Below, piece by piece: positions 875-27,956 of a stretch of DNA of 64,000 bases. Where the stretch lies: contig JAQBVF010000007.1 in the NCBI GenBank assembly GCA_027623675.1, positions 56,272 to 120,271 of the forward strand. Reading direction: 5' to 3'. The position numbers and the translations under genes were made by a program. How positions within the stretch are numbered: position 1 is the first letter of the stretch; every line of letters starts with the position of its first letter. The notes under the pieces are model-generated. The model had not been told where the DNA came from, did no database searches, and saw nothing but the letters and a program-made list of their open reading frames with translations. Source of the stretch: Chloroflexota bacterium (GTDB taxonomy: Bacteria > Chloroflexota > Dehalococcoidia > Lucifugimonadales > UBA3495).

Positions 875-1927
875 TTAAGGAAGCTGAATCTCTTTGGTGA
901 CTGCGGTGGTGTCGCCGAAGTTGCCGCAGTATAGGACGTGGTACGGCTCAGGCCCTCCGGAAACCGCCACGATTATGTCGTCGGCGGACCGGCAGGGGCA
1001 CACCAGGTCGCCGTCCATGGCGAAGCCGTCCTCGTAGGTGATTACCGAAGTCTCCTTGGGAAACCGGTCGATGGGCACCTTGCTGCGCTCGAATAGCTCC
1101 TGCTTGACCATCTGCTTGTTGTAGCCATTTTCCGCGAAGATACGGGAGTGACCGGGCGTAAGTATCACCAGCGGGTTGCCGGCGGCCAACAGGTAGTTGT
1201 TGTCGCTGATGTCGGCCATGGCGCTGGCGATCATGGTCAGGAAGCTCTCCGGCTCCTTATAGAAGGTGAGGCAGTTGCTGTAGCCCTGCGCTCCCACCAC
1301 GGTGACCGTGCTCTGCTCCGGCGAGAAACCGCGCTCCACATGCAGCGGCTCCCAGACGTTGTCCTCTTCGTTCTCGCCCATGCAGGCGCTGAACTTGGCG
1401 GCGCTGCCGTGGACCGCCATGTCGGTGGACCAGGGTTTGGCCCCGCCCACGTTCAGCAGCAACAGGCGCAGCGCGCGTCCGATGGTGGCGTTGGCCCGGT
1501 AGCCCGGCCCCAATGTGCCTCGGCCGCTGTTCAACCCGATCCGGCCTCGCACCGGACCGTTCACGATCATGAGCGGCGACGCCGGGTTGGTGGTGGTCTG
1601 CAGGCCGTGGATGTTGAAGGCCGGTTCGGTTACCGCCTGCACGGCGGCGATGAGGACAGGCATGTATTCCGGGAGACAACCAGCCATCACGGCGTTCACC
1701 GCGATCTTCTCAACCGTGGCGGCGCCGGCGTCGGGATTGATGTAACCCACCAACTCCGACGCATCCCGCCCCGCGTATTCCAGCATGGCCCGCACGCGGT
1801 CTGCGGTGGGCGGTATCACCGGCAGCCCGTCGGACCAGCCCTGGTCGATCATGAACTGGAATACGGCTTCGGGGGAGTCTTCGGACAATTCCATCTGAGA
1901 CGAAGTGAGGCGCGGGTCTACTGCCAT
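875..1927 (-). CDS. Conserved hypothetical protein, UGSC-selenoprotein partner (copy 1)
   Basis: 350 aa; motifs GWSDGLPVIPPT, TVEKIAVNAVMAGCLPEY, RANATIGRALRL shared with 26185..27243. Confidence 0.85.
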   Translation of the reverse strand: MAVDPRLTSSQMELSEDSPEAVFQFMIDQGWSDGLPVIPPTADRVRAMLEYAGRDASELVGYINPDAGAATVEKIAVNAVMAGCLPEYMPVLIAAVQAVTEPAFNIHGLQTTTNPASPLMIVNGPVRGRIGLNSGRGTLGPGYRANATIGRALRLLLLNVGGAKPWSTDMAVHGSAAKFSACMGENEEDNVWEPLHVERGFSPEQSTVTVVGAQGYSNCLTFYKEPESFLTMIASAMADISDNNYLLAAGNPLVILTPGHSRIFAENGYNKQMVKQELFERSKVPIDRFPKETSVITYEDGFAMDGDLVCPCRSADDIIVAVSGGPEPYHVLYCGNFGDTTAVTKEIQLP

Positions 1928-2089
1928 CCGTTACTCCTGTTTACAAACGTCTCAAAACAAAACCACTCCCTCCGATTCAATTGGAAGGAGCTGCGAGAAT
2001 CCTAGCTGGATCCAGTTTTTATCGTTCCCTGGGAGATCCGTCGATCTCTTAAAGAGGCCCACGGCTCCCGCACGGGGCGAAAGCCAGGC

Positions 2090-2298
2090 CTACAGGCTCT
2101 TCGCCCTGTGGTCCAGGACGGCCCTCACTTGGGCGTCGGTCACCCCAGGGAACCATTCAAGAAACTGCGATGTCTGGGCCCCGTCCTCCAGATTCTCGAA
2201 CAGCGCGGAAACCGGAACGCGGTTGCCACGAAATACCCAATCGCCGCTAACCCGCTGCAAAAAAGCACAACTGCTGCGCACGAAGACCAATCCAACAT
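2090..2298 (-). pseudogene. DUF433-family (antitoxin-like) gene, frameshifted
   Basis: ATG 2298 gives MLDWSSCAAV; after a T6 run the DUF433-like sequence RVSGDWVFRGNRVPVSALFENLEDG..FLEWFPGV continues in another frame. Confidence 0.65.
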
Positions 2299-2415
2299 AG
2301 CCAAATTTTACCTGCCGTATATCCGCCGTTCAATTCGTCTAAATGCCTTCATCCCAACAACAAGTTTGTTGGGGGCCTCATCATCCGCAAACTCTGATCA
2401 ATCTTTCCACACATA

Positions 2416-2635
2416 TCAGCGCCCTTGGAGAAACTCTTGGACGGTCATGTCTCTGGCGACCTGTCTGAGCAGTGGCGGGGCGATATCCCGGCCTTGATGA
2501 AATGGGGACCGTGGTTGCGCGTCCATCGAGGTGTCCATTTCGCCGGTGCGATCCCCGTCTGCGAACCTCGACGAAACCAAAGCGAACCAGAATCGCGGCA
2601 ACTTCGCGGGGGCGCAATACCGGGGAGTTACGCAT
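2416..2635 (-). pseudogene. hicA: HicA-family mRNA interferase toxin, frameshifted
   Basis: MRNSPVLRPREVAAILVRFGFVEVRRRGSH..DGRATTVP in one frame; FHQGRDIAPPLLRQVARD continues in another frame after an extra C in GTCCCCATTT (~2503-2508). Confidence 0.75.
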
Positions 2636-2640
2636 GCTGG

Positions 2641-2847
2641 CTACACTGTCACGCGTTGAGTGCCGACAAATTCTCCTTCCAGCTCAGGGTCCCCGTCCTC
2701 AAGCAGCATCGCGATGACCTCTTTCAAGTTTTCGTTTAATTCATCAAGGCTTGCCGCTTGGGAGTGGGCTCCTGGAAAACCAGGCACGTAACCGACATAC
2801 AATCCGGTCGCCGGATCCTTTTCGATAACCGCTGTGTATTCTTTCAT
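2641..2847 (-). CDS. hicB: HicB-family antitoxin (short form)
   Basis: MKEYTAVIEKDPATGLYVGYVPGFPGAHSQAASLDELNENLKEVIAMLLED; directly upstream of hicA. Confidence 0.85.
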   Translation of the reverse strand: MKEYTAVIEKDPATGLYVGYVPGFPGAHSQAASLDELNENLKEVIAMLLEDGDPELEGEFVGTQRVTV

Positions 2848-2894
2848 GGTTGGTCCTCGGGCTAATGGAATCCACGGAACACAGGTGCCCACGA

Positions 2895-2924
2895 TACCGT
2901 TCTAACGGGCCCGTTAGAACGGTA
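2895..2924. repeat. Perfect 30-bp palindrome TACCGTTCTAACGGG|CCCGTTAGAACGGTA
   Basis: Read directly; lies between the UGSC-1 stop and the hicB start. Confidence 0.9.
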
Positions 2925-2944
2925 GTACCTTGGCTTTCTTGGGG

Positions 2945-3484
2945 CTATTCCGGCTCGCGTAGCTGGGCGATTATCAGTTCTACGGCCTCTTTGGCCACGG
3001 AGCGCACCACGTCGGGCTCGACGTACTCGGTGAGTTCGGTCTTGGGCAGGACGACCATGGGCGCGTCGGGCATGCCGTTGCCCCGCATGGAAGCCTTGGC
3101 CAGGGTGGTGAACCGCTCGGTTACCAAGACCACCGAGGGCATGCCGCTCTTGATCAGTTTAACGCTGTCGTGGACACTCCACGCGGTGCAGGAACCTCAA
3201 TTTGCCAGGCCGACTATGGCCAGTTGGGCGCGCGCCTCCACCTCGTCGAAGGTCGCTTGGGGAGCCGCCGAGGCCAGGGGGATCAACCTCTCAAAGACTT
3301 CGGTCACACCGTACTGTTCCTTGAGGATGATGCCGATCTGCTCGGAGATGATGTTCATGCTGGTCCAGCGGTTGTTCAGTATGGCGACCGTGGCGCCTTG
3401 CAGATCGTTTATGTGGGGGATGTGGCCGTCCATGGGACGCCACGCCTCCGCCGCCGGGCTGAGGATCGACATCTTGTTGACCAT
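2945..3484 (-). CDS. UGSC-motif selenoprotein (copy 1), ~179 aa, Sec at TGA 3197-3199
   Basis: ORFs 3197..3508 and 2945..3142 are in frame and separated by one TGA, reading VGLAN-U-GSCTAWSVHD; AAGGAG RBS 7 nt before ATG 3484; SECIS-like hairpin. Confidence 0.85.
3169..3183 (-). promoter_or_regulatory. Putative bacterial SECIS element
   Basis: CGUGGA-GUG-UCCACG hairpin starting 13 nt after the UGA. Confidence 0.65.
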
Positions 3485-3522
3485 GGCCATGCTCCTTCGC
3501 CTCTCCAAAGGTGAATCCGGAC

Positions 3523-4149
3523 CTAGCGGTTGGCGGCCGCGCTCTTTGCCGGGTCATACACCGGGCGGACCATCTCGTAACGGTCGCTGGTGCGGCAGTA
3601 CATGTTGCCCGCCATGCGGCCGGTGGCCATGAGCTTCTCCTGGTCGATGCGGTGCCCGTTGATAATGTCGTCACGGACGTGCATCAAGACGATGGTGCCG
3701 ATAACCAGTCCATGCTCGTGGTCACCGGAGCCGATCTGCACCACCTGGTCCAGCTTACATTCGATGTTCACCGGAGATTCAAGCACCCTGGGGGCTTTGA
3801 CGATATCCGAGGGTGCATGGGTCAGCCCGGCAATCTCGAACTCATCCACGCCCTCGGGGAATTCGGCCGCGGTGGCATTCATCGCCTCAGCAATGGGATC
3901 TACCACGATGTTCACCACGAACTCGCCGGTCTCTTCGATGTTCCGCAGGGTGTCCTTGCTCTTGTTACCAACGTGCCGGGAAGACGAGAAAACGACGGTG
4001 GTGTAGGACACGGCATTGAAGAATGAGTAAGGCGCCAGGTTGACCACGCCGTCGGGGGACACGGAAGATACGAACGCGATGGGCCTGGGAACGATCACTC
4101 CGGTGAGGACGCGGTTGAAACCTTCAAATGTATTTGGGTCGATCTTCAA
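3523..4149 (-). CDS. Flavin reductase family protein
   Basis: VPRPIAFVSS, NLAPYSFFN, KDTLRNIEETGEFVVN motifs. Confidence 0.9.
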   Translation of the reverse strand: MKIDPNTFEGFNRVLTGVIVPRPIAFVSSVSPDGVVNLAPYSFFNAVSYTTVVFSSSRHVGNKSKDTLRNIEETGEFVVNIVVDPIAEAMNATAAEFPEGVDEFEIAGLTHAPSDIVKAPRVLESPVNIECKLDQVVQIGSGDHEHGLVIGTIVLMHVRDDIINGHRIDQEKLMATGRMAGNMYCRTSDRYEMVRPVYDPAKSAAANR

Positions 4150-4257
4150 GTAATTACCTCTACCGGGGGAGTCCCGGCTGCCTTATGATTTTATGTGGGT
4201 TGTTTCTGGGGGCTATCTCGTGGGAATTATATAGACCGCCAGGGGAGACGCCAAGTT

Positions 4258-4367: not shown

Positions 4368-4874
4368 ATGAACTGGGCGGAAATGATAGTCAAAGCGCTC
4401 AAGGACTGGGATACGTCCTTGATTGCCTATGTGCCGGACATATCCATCCATCGGGTGACCAGCCTGATCGAGGCCGACCCCTACTTCAGATTGGTCGCGG
4501 CCACCAGAGAGGAGGAGGCCATCGGCATCGCGGTCGGGTCTTACGCGGCGGGCCGCAACGCAGCCGTATTCATGCAATCCAGCGGGTTCGGCAATAGCGT
4601 AAACGCCCTGGCCAGCCTGTGCATCCCATCCAGAACGCCCATCCCCATGTTCGTCAATCTGCGGGGCGGGCCCGGCGAGTTCAACATCGCCCAGGTGGCC
4701 ATGGGACAAGCCGTCCGGCCTATCATGGACCAGTTGGGGCTGGTTCACTTCACACTGGACGACGACCGGAACATGGAAAAGTTGCTCGACGGCGCCATGA
4801 AGCTTTGCCACGCCAACCGGCAGCCCTTGGCGGTGTGCATGACCCAATTGCTGCACGGAGGCAAACTTGCGTAG
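4368..4874 (+). CDS. TPP-dependent decarboxylase alpha subunit (sulfopyruvate decarboxylase ComD-like / phosphonopyruvate decarboxylase-like)
   Basis: YVPD, TREEEAIGIAVG, MQSSGFGNSVNAL, LRGGPGEFNIAQ. Confidence 0.8.
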   Translation: MNWAEMIVKALKDWDTSLIAYVPDISIHRVTSLIEADPYFRLVAATREEEAIGIAVGSYAAGRNAAVFMQSSGFGNSVNALASLCIPSRTPIPMFVNLRGGPGEFNIAQVAMGQAVRPIMDQLGLVHFTLDDDRNMEKLLDGAMKLCHANRQPLAVCMTQLLHGGKLA

Positions 4875-5439
4875 ATTCGAAGGCACACAAATGATTTTGC
4901 GTTTGGCGGGCGATGCGCCCATCGTCAGCAACCTTGGTCCCGGGTCTGACGACCTTTGGCACGCCGGACACCGCGACCGCAATTTCTACACCTACGGCAA
5001 CATGGGGCTTTGCTCGTCCCTGGCGCTGGGCATGGCCATGGCCACCGACGAACAGGTCATTTCCCTGGACGGCGACGGTTCGCTCCTGATGAACCTGGGA
5101 ACGATCGCATCCATCGGGCGGGAGCAGCCCAAGAACCTGACGGTGGTGGTATGGGACAACGAAAAGTGGGGCCAGACCGGCGGGCAGACCAGCCACACCG
5201 GCATGGGGACCGACCTGGAGCAGGTAGCCCGAAGCTGCGGGATCGCCCGCACGAAGACCGTGTCGGACCTGGAAGACTTGGAAGCCGCAGTGTCCGAGGC
5301 GCTGGCGACTGACGGCCCCAATTTCATAGTAGCCAAGATCGATGAGGGCGAATATCTGCCGGTGGCCCCGGTGGAGCCCGAGTTCACCCTATACCGTTTC
5401 CGGAACACCTTCGTGGAACAGCGACAGCCCGGCCACTAG
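4867..5439 (+). CDS. TPP-dependent decarboxylase beta subunit (ComE-like)
   Basis: GNMGL and DGDGSLLMNLG..WDN TPP-binding motif; overlaps the alpha-subunit stop. Confidence 0.8.
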   Translation: MRRFEGTQMILRLAGDAPIVSNLGPGSDDLWHAGHRDRNFYTYGNMGLCSSLALGMAMATDEQVISLDGDGSLLMNLGTIASIGREQPKNLTVVVWDNEKWGQTGGQTSHTGMGTDLEQVARSCGIARTKTVSDLEDLEAAVSEALATDGPNFIVAKIDEGEYLPVAPVEPEFTLYRFRNTFVEQRQPGH

Positions 5440-5524: not shown

Positions 5525-6265
5525 CTAACTGACTTTGGCCCCGGCCTGCATCTTTTGGATCGCGCCGTCCAGTTCTTCTAGGTCGAACAGGTGGGGGCCG
5601 GCGCCGCCGTGGTAAACGACTTTGCCGTCCTTGCCGATCAGGTACAGGCGCTCCGGGGCAGCCCCGTAAGCCTCGTCGATGGCGTTGTCCATCTCTTCAA
5701 CCAAGGTTGGAAGTGAGATGTGCAGCCCGATGGTGCAGGACTGGGCGGCCTCTTCCCGTTCCTCGTAGCTTTGGTGTTGGCGCAGCAGGACACCTTCCTC
5801 GACATTGGAATCGGTCTGCCAGCCGTCGGTGGGGTGGGCCTCTTGAACGTAAACCACGAAGAACTCGATGTGGTCCTGGTACTGGCTGTAGAGTTGCTCC
5901 ATGCGCTCAACCTGAGCGCGGAAGGGCGGTCAAGTGTAGCTGCCAAAGATCAGGGCCACGGGCCGTTTATCTTTGAAGCTGGACAGCCGGACCCGCTCCT
6001 CCGAGCCCGCCCGCTTTAGTTCGAAATCGGGGGGCACATCGCCAACGTGAGGGCCCATCTCGTCCCGGGCCACCACTGCTTCCATGGCCTCGCGCAGGAT
6101 GGGGGTCAGGTTTCCGCCGATCGCCTCTAGCATCTCGCGGGCCGGCATCTGACCGACGGTCGTCCCCTCGCGTTTTGCCCGGTAGTCGTCCATGAACCGC
6201 CGGAACAGTTTCCGGTCATCGCCCTGAAGGTTCCCCAGTATCTGGTCTCGGTCTGCTTTCAGCAT
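5525..6265 (-). CDS. Iodothyronine-deiodinase-like selenoprotein, ~246 aa, Sec at TGA 5930-5932
   Basis: In-frame ORFs 5930..6337 and 5525..5902 give RPVALIFGSYT-U-PPFR; also VYVQEAHPTDGW and YGAAPERLY deiodinase motifs; SECIS-like hairpin. Confidence 0.88.
5903..5919 (-). promoter_or_regulatory. Putative bacterial SECIS element
   Basis: Perfect GCGCUCA-GGU-UGAGCGC hairpin 10 nt after the UGA. Confidence 0.7.
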
Positions 6266-6407
6266 ATCGGCCTTCCCCTTGAGCGCGGGCGCAGATTGAT
6301 TCGGGGCTATTGTATTCGCCGTGCCTGGCGATAACAACCCGTCGGACCAGACCCCACCGCCAGTGGGGACGACCAGGACGGACCTCTCGTGTCACCCGGA
6401 GTAGAAA

Positions 6408-26184: not shown

Positions 26185-27243
26185 TTAAGCGTGTTTGACG
26201 ATCTCTTCCGTGGCCATCCGAGTGACGCCCCACCCGGCCAACCAAGCAGAATGACGGCCATCGCCTCCGGCAACAATGGGCACGATGTCGCTTGAAGAGC
26301 GCACGATGGGCACCAGGGTCTCGGGGTTGGTCTCATCCACCCAACTGGGCCAGTTGCGGTTTCCATAGTGCGCTCGTCCCACCAACACCTTCATCGGCAT
26401 TCGTGCGTTCTGGTAGACGTATTCCTGGATATCGGACTTGGACAGTCCTGAGGCGGCAATCTCTTCGGCATGCTCTGGGCAGATGACCAACACGATCTGG
26501 GCGCCGGTACCTATCTGGTAGTAATTCGAGATTCCAGTTGCCTTCATATTGCCAACGATCGTCTGCAATACCTCCAGTCCGGTGGACACGGTTGTCTCCA
26601 TGATGGTGTATACGCCCCGAACCGCCACCACGGTCACCGTGCTGGAGCCTGCGGGATAACCAAGCTGGATGTTTCTGGCCTCCCAGGGACTGCGCTCCTC
26701 GTTCTCGGCGAAGCAGAAGCTGTAGCGTCCGGGCGTGGCCAGCGTGGCCTTGTCCATGACCCCGGGTATCAGCCCACCCACATTGCGGATGACCAACCGC
26801 AGCGCCCTGCCGATGGCTGCATTCGCCCTGGAGCCCGGCCCGAAGCAGGCGGCATCACCGTTTATGCCCAGCTCCTTGGCTATGGGGCCGTTGACGATCA
26901 CCACCTGGGCTGCTCCACCGGTGGTTGCGGCGTTACCCCCCAAGTTGAAGTCCTTGTCCAGGGCCGCTTTCACCGCAGCGACCACCACTGGGAAATACTC
27001 CGGCTTACAACCGGCCATGACCGAGTTGATCGCTATCTTCTCCAGCGTCGCCTGGGAGTTCCGAGGCTGCATCGTGCCCAGGGAGAACGACGGGGCTCCG
27101 CCGTACCCGGCCAGCATCGCGCGCACTAGCGGTTCCGTGGGCGGCACCACCGGCAACCCGTCCGTCCATCCCTGGTCCCAGCAGTAGTCCTGGATGTCCT
27201 GGAAGGAATCGGATACCTCTACGCGCCTAGCATTTAGAGTCAC
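26185..27243 (-). CDS. Conserved hypothetical protein, UGSC-selenoprotein partner (copy 2)
   Basis: GWTDGLPVVPPT, TLEKIAINSVMAGCKPEY, RANAAIGRALRL; paralog of 875..1927. Confidence 0.85.
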   Translation of the reverse strand: MTLNARRVEVSDSFQDIQDYCWDQGWTDGLPVVPPTEPLVRAMLAGYGGAPSFSLGTMQPRNSQATLEKIAINSVMAGCKPEYFPVVVAAVKAALDKDFNLGGNAATTGGAAQVVIVNGPIAKELGINGDAACFGPGSRANAAIGRALRLVIRNVGGLIPGVMDKATLATPGRYSFCFAENEERSPWEARNIQLGYPAGSSTVTVVAVRGVYTIMETTVSTGLEVLQTIVGNMKATGISNYYQIGTGAQIVLVICPEHAEEIAASGLSKSDIQEYVYQNARMPMKVLVGRAHYGNRNWPSWVDETNPETLVPIVRSSSDIVPIVAGGDGRHSAWLAGWGVTRMATEEIVKHA

Positions 27244-27352
27244 GGGCTTGACCTCGTCAGTTGATTTCGGGGATGCAAGTTCAGGTGAAGATTCTCCGGC
27301 GGAACGGCCGGCAAGTCAAGACGGCCGCGCCGTTTAGATCAGACCGGCAAAT

Positions 27353-27383
27353 CAAAAGAGGGGCCGGTCTGGCCCCTCTTTTG
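27353..27383 (-). terminator. Terminator-like hairpin between UGSC-2 and its partner gene
   Basis: CAAAAGAGGGGCC..GGCCCCTCTTTTG. Confidence 0.7.
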
Positions 27384-27413
27384 TTCTCGTATCGGGTATG
27401 CCTAGGGAGAGCG

Positions 27414-27956
27414 TTACTTCCCCGTGAGCAGTCCTACGATCTCCGGTGCGAAATCGCGGGCCATCTGCTGGACCTCGGGGATGGTCCTGGGAGCCAGCGG
27501 ACTGGGCAGCACCACGATGCGGGCGCCCGGCATGCCCAGAGCAGTCGCCCTGGCGTGGGCTGCCCTGGTAAAGGTGCTGGTTATCACGCTGACGGAAGGC
27601 TTTCCCTTGGATTCTGTGATCACTGTGTCGTGGAGACCCCACGCTGTGCAGGACCCTCAATCCGCGATGGCGTGTATCACCACATCGCATTCGTCGACCA
27701 GCGACTGAATCGTGTCGTCGGCACAGGGGGCGCTGTAGGTGAACTTGGTGGCGTAGACCACTTTTGCGGCGCCGTAGTCCTTGAGTAGCACCTCTTTCAG
27801 CTCGCCCAAGAAGGCGTCGGCGTGGTACTTGCGGTTCTCCAGCAGACCCACCACTTTGCCCTGCAGATCGGGCAGTGCGTCGCTCAGGCCCAACTCCTCG
27901 GGAACATCCTCCGCGGTGGGATCCAGTATCTCAATCATTCGTGTTGCTTGCGCCAT
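27414..27956 (-). CDS. UGSC-motif selenoprotein (copy 2), 180 aa, Sec at TGA 27657-27659
   Basis: In-frame ORFs 27657..27956 and 27414..27623 read HAIAD-U-GSCTAWGLHD; homologous to copy 1 on both sides of the TGA. Confidence 0.85.
27629..27643 (-). promoter_or_regulatory. Putative bacterial SECIS element
   Basis: CGUGG-GGUCU-CCACG hairpin 13 nt after the UGA. Confidence 0.7.

Follow-up and report, generated by a model that had tools for sequence, protein, structure and literature searches.

A UGSC selenoprotein and its near-obligate 350-residue partner: a predicted two-subunit enzyme with a probable distant tie to glycine and proline reductases

Introduction

A gene of the UGSC selenoprotein family and the gene of a 350-residue partner, encoded together in a Chloroflexota bacterium (Dehalococcoidia, Lucifugimonadales; GenBank assembly GCA_027623675.1), are near-obligate companions and very probably encode the two subunits of one complex, as judged from structure prediction. 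The window that we analysed, 64,000 nucleotides of contig JAQBVF010000007.1 (positions 56,272 to 120,271, forward strand), holds the pair twice, at locus 1 and again at locus 2 (26185..27956), as an earlier note made from the sequence alone had observed. Profile comparisons indicate that the selenocysteine (Sec) segment of UGSC is a distant homologue of the corresponding segment of GrdB and PrdB, which makes UGSC a relative, not a member, of that group. On these grounds we propose, with support and doubt evenly matched, that the pair is a two-subunit selenol reductase resembling the glycine and proline reductases (Grd and Prd), in which an unrelated protein serves as the substrate-binding subunit and which acts on imported organic compounds.

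In the Global Ocean Sampling survey UGSC ranked fifth by abundance among selenoprotein families, with 255 sequences (PMC2398784, Table 2), and in 2026 a review described it as still uncharacterised. Its link to a domain named Unknown_1 is already known, as the two appear fused in Figure S1A of Zhang and Gladyshev (2008; PMC2398784), so the earlier note overstated the case in calling the module hidden. No literature that connects UGSC to GrdB or PrdB, or that assigns it a function, was found in a search that included few subscription papers.

Results

The TGA codon of locus 1 is almost certainly read as selenocysteine, to judge from sequence conservation and gene content. Two open reading frames (ORFs) on the reverse strand, 3197..3508 and 2945..3142, constitute a single frame whose sole interruption is this TGA, just as the earlier note had proposed, and decoding it as Sec yields 181 residues that start at ATG 3490, directly preceded by AAGGAG (an alternative in-frame ATG lies at 3484), and contain GLAN-U-GSCTAWSVHD. 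The hairpin that had been reported 13 nucleotides past the TGA was found as CGTGGA-GTG-TCCACG, and the family assignment held as well, with Pfam family PF24696 (UGSC) matching the protein at 108.6 bits against a cut-off of 25. NCBIfam family NF041046 reached 86.6 bits, below its cut-off of 125, which places locus 1 in a divergent subfamily, unlike locus 2. Motif, length, Sec read-through and hairpin are common to locus 1 and the UGSC family (PF24696/NF041046) as PMC1976440 and PMC2398784 describe it, and the nearest related loci, at 75-86% identity, lie in Dehalococcoidia genomes that presumably belong to the SAR202 group.

The source genome (3.07 Mb, 91% complete) encodes selA, selB and selD, all above cut-off, together with tRNA-Sec, and its eight UGSC genes all carry TGA at the identical column with a hairpin at equal distance; locus and genome hence combine the features that define a bacterial selenoprotein gene, a selenocysteine insertion sequence (SECIS) right after UGA and the set of selA, selB, selC and selD. 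We compared the hairpin in 77 distinct TGA-type homologues with that in 5 Cys-type genes, all kin, so that the counts are not independent. The pair +15/+27 is kept in 77/77 TGA-type genes (GC 69, CG 6, AT 2) and in 2/5 Cys-type genes, the pair +18/+24 is kept in 75/77 TGA-type homologues, and the loop GT(G/A) occurs in 72/77 and 0/5, respectively. Compensation is synonymous: a sixth codon TGG (Trp) is accompanied by an eighth codon xxC (46/46), and TGC (Cys) by xxG (25/25, of which 4 are fixed Met codons). Homologues bear either TGA or Cys at the Sec position, as the earlier note had suggested checking, with TGA at 64 of 72 paired loci, Cys at 6 and 2 unassigned; the Cys-type host of locus L063 (genome G156) has no selA match, whereas two TGA-type hosts do. 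That the TGA is instead a genuine stop, and the gene split or a pseudogene, would suit a hairpin whose folding energy shows no excess over shuffled sequences (z 0.66 and 0.15), but the fixed column of the TGA in paralogues and paired loci, its replacement by Cys, the synonymous compensation, the full Sec machinery and the Cys-type host without selA leave this alternative next to no probability. The selD gene of the source genome (contig C3:53424-54344) itself has an in-frame TGA.

Pairing with the partner is near-obligate, and the co-occurrence on which the earlier note's argument depended is borne out in every sample that we surveyed. Within the source genome, where the paralogues are divergent (25-44% identical), all eight UGSC genes lie beside or are fused to a partner gene and one of nine partners lacks UGSC. 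From 566 confirmed GTDB partner loci we took the best 80; a co-oriented UGSC gene accompanies the partner at 72 of these, upstream in 50 cases and downstream in 22, and in 65 cases no more than 300 bp away. Two further samples were chosen independently of partner presence. UGSC occurs in 10 and the partner in 12 of 101 Chloroflexota genomes, all 10 UGSC genomes having both, and at UGSC loci outside the source genome the partner lies within 1.5 kb in 10/12, the two misses being contig ends; of 251 Pseudomonadota genomes, 4 carry UGSC above cut-off and these are also the 4 with the partner above cut-off, while one more has a sub-cut-off UGSC only. Fusion is common: when the best 150 were taken from 5275 partner representatives, 50 proved to contain in-frame UGSC sequence, 13 of them whole and 37 cut at Sec by the gene caller. 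The source genome has a UGGC-partner fusion on contig C46 (L085:4942-6690), and its orphan partner, on contig C26 (L087:7060-8145), is 70% identical to the locus 2 partner. Some fusions have a cysteine-less UGSC half (P0150, P0201, P0204), and in other proteins, about 610-740 residues long, the partner domain is duplicated in tandem (P0145, P0171, P0181, P0211, P0221, P0227, P0287).

Structure prediction supports the two-subunit arrangement that the earlier note had put forward. We modelled the natural Cys pair of locus L063, from a pseudomonadote host, as a stand-in whose proteins are 26% and 41% identical to those of the window, and obtained a complex score of 0.86 against 0.00 for the best of three controls; of 157 solved complexes 116 attain the mark for this score, as do 2 of 215 mismatched pairs, counts that are a rough guide for runs with their own alignments. 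Contacts agreed by at least 90% between runs, and the predicted local distance difference test (pLDDT) of the partner was at least 89. On the UGSC side the predicted interface includes residues 1-14, the entire C-G-S-C-T-S-W stretch and a conserved histidine, His107, which is retained in 87% of 84 UGSC members; on the partner side it includes the equivalents of window residues 102-114, 155-170 and 337-339. The equivalents of partner cysteines Cys84 and Cys182 are not named at the interface, where an unnamed residue is to be read as uncertain, so the proximity of U/C to the VMAGC motif that the earlier note looked for did not emerge.

UGSC models as a flavodoxin-like alternating beta-alpha protein (84 sequences, pLDDT 94.2), in which every one of five strands leads into a helix and U-x-x-C opens the helix that succeeds strand 3. 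Its best structural matches, tied at Z 9-11, are flavodoxin-like, receiver and periplasmic-binding domains, with no thioredoxin-fold chain among the matches listed. The literature (PMC1976440, PMC2398784) treats the family as one of unknown function with a 'likely Trx-like fold', which the model does not appear to show. Family searches with the same 84 members point towards the protein B reductases: 34 matched TIGR01917 (GrdB; best E 1.4e-7, listed without cut-offs), 21 GrdF, 21 TIGR01918, 15 GrdH and 11 PrdB, and the next recurring family matched 6/84 at E 0.01. Aligned by hhalign, the UGSC profile gave 93.0% (E 3.3e-7) against 3 GrdB-type sequences and 82.1% (E 1e-5) against 15 PrdB-like sequences, with U-x-x-C in register both times, compared with 0.1-3.8% for control pairings. 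The segment homologous to GrdB, GrdF, GrdH and PrdB runs strand, U-x-x-C, helix, E-x-x-G-I-P, strand, and those proteins, like UGSC in its predicted complex, work with a second subunit. UGSC differs from them in having no PF07355 domain and a different N-terminal half, and in that its partner is not GrdE or PrdA and no pyruvoyl proprotein is evident; the three PF07355 matches of the source genome are genes other than UGSC. The hosts of UGSC are not known to be Stickland fermenters. No solved relative was found by sequence for UGSC, the partner or either profile. The PrdB-like profile gave none either, and for this reason the fold search has no bearing on the tie to GrdB/PrdB. The source genome also has three short PrdB-like genes with U-P-x-C (contigs C18, C5 and C10; L088-L090), with no PF09338 match there.

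The partner gene, found with the DGLPVIPPT and VMAGC motifs that the earlier note had reported, belongs by its sequence to the Unknown_1 family, the block AVNxVMAGCxPEYMP...NGP, as given in PMC2398784, corresponding to partner residues 76-125. Pfam and NCBIfam gave no recurring match among 99 partner members, and a protein atlas gave unnamed clusters only, two of them auto-named 'thioredoxin' without a Pfam family. Its model is confident (pLDDT 97.1), and its invariant or nearly invariant polar residues include D33, N78, C84, T113, N146, R151, N159, C182 and E185. A fold search over 48161 chains returned nothing at Z of at least 8, a result that barely tested residues 1-85 and does not show a new fold; the best scores (Z 6.5-6.7) were partial chorismate-mutase-like and encapsulin-like cores. 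Foldseek ranked first 7xky_A, the alpha subunit of a class I Fe-S fumarate hydratase (E 4.3e-4, template-modelling score 0.31), which VIA aligned over 190 residues at Z 5.3 and a root-mean-square deviation (rmsd) of 5.6, tied with unrelated rows. As far as sequence goes, we rejected the partner as a fumarate hydratase homologue, given the absence from its consensus of CQDTG, the cluster-ligand motif of that enzyme class, and an hhalign value of 0.1% against a shallow alignment of 10 sequences, and equally as a GrdE/PrdA homologue, with 0.1% against a shallow alignment of 12 PF09338 sequences.

Genes that flank the pairs often concern uptake. Duplicates and near-identical loci having been excluded, 94 flanking ORFs were scanned of 105 picked, and 16 of the 51 that could be named are solute-binding or uptake proteins, among them TctC (5), family-5 binding proteins (5) and DctP (2). 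Catabolic enzymes make up the greater part of the other named ORFs, with CoA-transferase III (3), DUF6282 (3), MmgE/PrpD (2), luciferase-like (2) and LigB (2) proteins among them. No neighbour gene common to the lineages was found from which a substrate could be read.

Mechanism and alternatives

D-proline reductase holds its substrate in the second subunit, and the alpha carbon is attacked by the Sec of PrdB (PMC11229817); protein B variants are substrate-specific, one of them, which lacks pyruvoyl, being proposed to cleave C-F bonds (PMC10838667). We extend the same logic to the UGSC pair. The N-terminal strand of UGSC would dock on the partner, which would bring U/C-G-S-C and the conserved His opposite F337-G338 and the N-L-x-G-x-Q-T-T-N loop of the partner (window residues 105-114). 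The partner would bind and polarise the substrate, the role of GrdE/PrdA assumed by an unrelated protein; here the analogy is one of function only, because the partner has no similarity to GrdE/PrdA and PF09338 finds no match in the genome. Sec98 may then attack a small organic substrate and displace a leaving group (at a C-N, C-S, C-O or C-halogen bond), Cys101 would resolve the adduct to a selenenylsulfide, and a thioredoxin-type system, of the sort whose domains occur fused to a few partners, would re-reduce the enzyme rather than the neighbouring flavin reductase doing so. Each of the eight divergent pairs of the source genome could act on a different substrate; their divergence, together with the uptake and catabolic neighbours, suggests substrate-specific catabolism.

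Several observations weigh against this interpretation. The pair used for the complex model is a stand-in, and the abundance of natural fusions may have guided the prediction. A co-oriented UGSC is missing at eight of the 80 partner loci, with less than 1.2 kb of contig upstream in 4 and a flank of at least 3 kb in the other 4, and the C-G-x-C motif is missing from 3 of the 13 full-length fusions. The homology to GrdB/PrdB spans only 70-86 columns, PF07355 is not matched by the UGSC proteins of either locus (P0001, P0003), and the source genome has no PF09338 match, although the search matched 5/5 control genomes. Neighbour counts come without a background control and vary from locus to locus. 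Finally, Cys84 and Cys182 of the partner are conserved in 97% and 94% of 137 members, which fits a thiol relay too.

Such a relay, in which the pair would act as a thiol/selenol-disulfide relay or a peroxide or sulfoxide reductase and U-x-x-C would exchange with a catalytic or accepting cysteine of the partner, was close to the earlier note's proposal of a two-subunit thiol/selenol oxidoreductase. Besides the two conserved cysteines, the U-x-x-C motif itself speaks for it, as do the domains found fused to the partner among 65 long representatives scanned (AhpC/TSA in 2, ferredoxin-thioredoxin reductase in 1, pyridine nucleotide-disulfide reductase in 1) and the redox role proposed for the conserved Cys in the 2008 paper (PMC2398784). 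The predicted interface, however, names the whole CGSC and neither partner cysteine (uncertain as that absence is), the monomer model places Cys84 at a helix cap and Cys182 in a short strand, the recurring weak family matches are to Grd/Prd and not to thioredoxin-type proteins, and eight divergent paralogues near uptake and catabolic genes better fit substrate-specific enzymes. We regard the relay as doubtful. The two-subunit part of the earlier proposal stands as a prediction, whereas homology to GrdB/PrdB favours bond cleavage over thiol/disulfide exchange.

A second alternative holds that Sec98, Cys101 and His107 are ligands of a metal or Fe-S cluster, and that the pair is a cluster-dependent lyase (a dehydratase, isomerase or C-S lyase) with its site between the subunits. 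The retention of His107 at the predicted interface agrees with this, and so do the partner's first-ranked fumarate hydratase match, weak CGGC-domain matches in 13 of 84 UGSC members and the presence among the top UGSC structural matches of chain 8s7v_H of a methyl-coenzyme M reductase activation complex (Z 10.5, rmsd 3.7, 132 aligned); we take this chain from its length to be Mmp7, which binds a cluster via His and Cys. Both structural matches are nonetheless tied with unrelated rows, the sequence comparison with fumarate hydratase and the lack of CQDTG noted above do not support the former, and no McrC/Mmp7 family is among the recurring UGSC matches shown. We judge a cluster-dependent lyase unlikely, and retain the Grd/Prd-like selenol reductase as our preferred interpretation.

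Locus organisation

The features of the two loci are collected in Table 1. At locus 2, UGSC and partner are 170 bp apart; among orthologues of locus 1 the gap ranges from 3 to 955 bp and is filled with differing cassettes, for which reason we view the spacer of locus 1 as an insertion hot spot in a conserved operon. Toxin-antitoxin cassettes in the spacer differ among the related loci L003, L005, L010, L011 and L052, and those of the window are frameshifted.

Table 1. Features of the two UGSC-partner loci in the window
Feature	Position	Strand	Remarks
350-residue partner, Unknown_1 family by sequence	875..1927	-	DGLPVIPPT and VMAGC; no Pfam/NCBIfam family
Spacer with inserted degenerate toxin-antitoxin genes	1928..2944	-	1017 bp, between UGSC and partner, locus 1
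DUF433 remnant	2090..2304	-	within locus 1 spacer
Weak promoter-like site	2333..2305	-	in spacer, ahead of partner gene
HicA-like, frameshifted	2381..2635	-	within locus 1 spacer
HicB-like	2641..2847	-	label from resemblance and position; no family match
UGSC-family selenoprotein gene, locus 1	2945..3490	-	181 residues, Sec98-Gly-Ser-Cys101; profile match and model
SECIS-like hairpin	3169..3183	-	6-bp stem, GUG loop; 13 nt 3' of TGA, locus 1
In-frame TGA, probable Sec codon	3197..3199	-	locus 1 UGSC gene
Flavin-reductase-like gene (PF01613)	3523..4149	-	5' of locus 1 UGSC
Sigma-70-like promoter candidate	4226..4254	-	TTGGCG-17-TATAAT; 5' of flavin reductase; consensus match only
Second partner gene	26185..27243	-	352 residues; 36% identical to first partner
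Second UGSC selenoprotein gene	27414..27956	-	NF041046 133.3 bits, above cut-off; IAD-U-GSC
Hairpin of second UGSC gene	27629..27643	-
TGA of second UGSC gene	27657..27659	-

The flavin reductase gene upstream of UGSC is likely co-transcribed with it at locus 1, and the earlier note had suggested that its product might supply the module. As a general electron donor we rejected it: the source genome has one copy against eight UGSC/partner pairs, and the gene adjoins UGSC in 12 of 87 loci, every one of them orthologous to locus 1, so that it is a clade-specific addition outside the general module. Its adjacency in these 12 orthologues raises the alternative that the family pairing is real while the operon of locus 1 is being uncoupled by toxin-antitoxin insertions, with UGSC working with the flavin reductase or with the partner of another paralogue. 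The 1017-bp insert that separates the two genes, the promoter-like site ahead of the partner gene and the orphan partner on contig C26 would be in keeping with this, but neither gene is damaged, each shares 75-90% identity with orthologues whose gap is 3-111 bp, and the flavin reductase is absent from the genome's 7 other loci fetched and from 68 of the 80 related loci. Uncoupling at locus 1 thus appears very unlikely.

The genes of a two-subunit thiamine pyrophosphate enzyme (4371..5439, forward strand) point away from the operon of flavin reductase and UGSC and keep this place in about 12 orthologous loci. The enzyme is closest to sulfopyruvate decarboxylase, although TIGR03845 (120 bits) and TIGR03846 (162 bits) stay below cut-off, and is a possible organosulfur link. 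Beyond it lies a second split selenoprotein gene (5525..6337, reverse strand), for a deiodinase-like/AhpC-TSA protein with YT-U-PPF, its TGA at 5930..5932 and the hairpin GCGCUCA-GGU-UGAGCGC 3' of the TGA.

Discussion

As far as the searchable literature extends, the tie to GrdB/PrdB, the site that UGSC and partner are predicted to share and the multiplication of the pair to eight copies in one genome are new. Building on them, we tentatively suggest that UGSC is the catalytic half of a third branch of the glycine and proline reductases, in which the 350-residue subunit replaces the pyruvoyl proprotein, and that this branch may have multiplied in Dehalococcoidia, Rokubacteria and Binatia into substrate-specific enzymes for the cleavage of C-N, C-S or C-halogen bonds in dissolved organics. 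Because gene callers cut UGSC genes at the TGA, as they did in the 37 fusions cut at Sec among the best 150 partner representatives, the eight enzymes of the source genome are invisible to ordinary annotation. Now that UGSC has a partner from which it is rarely separated, an active site that the two are predicted to share and a tie to GrdB/PrdB, its function can be approached by experiment.

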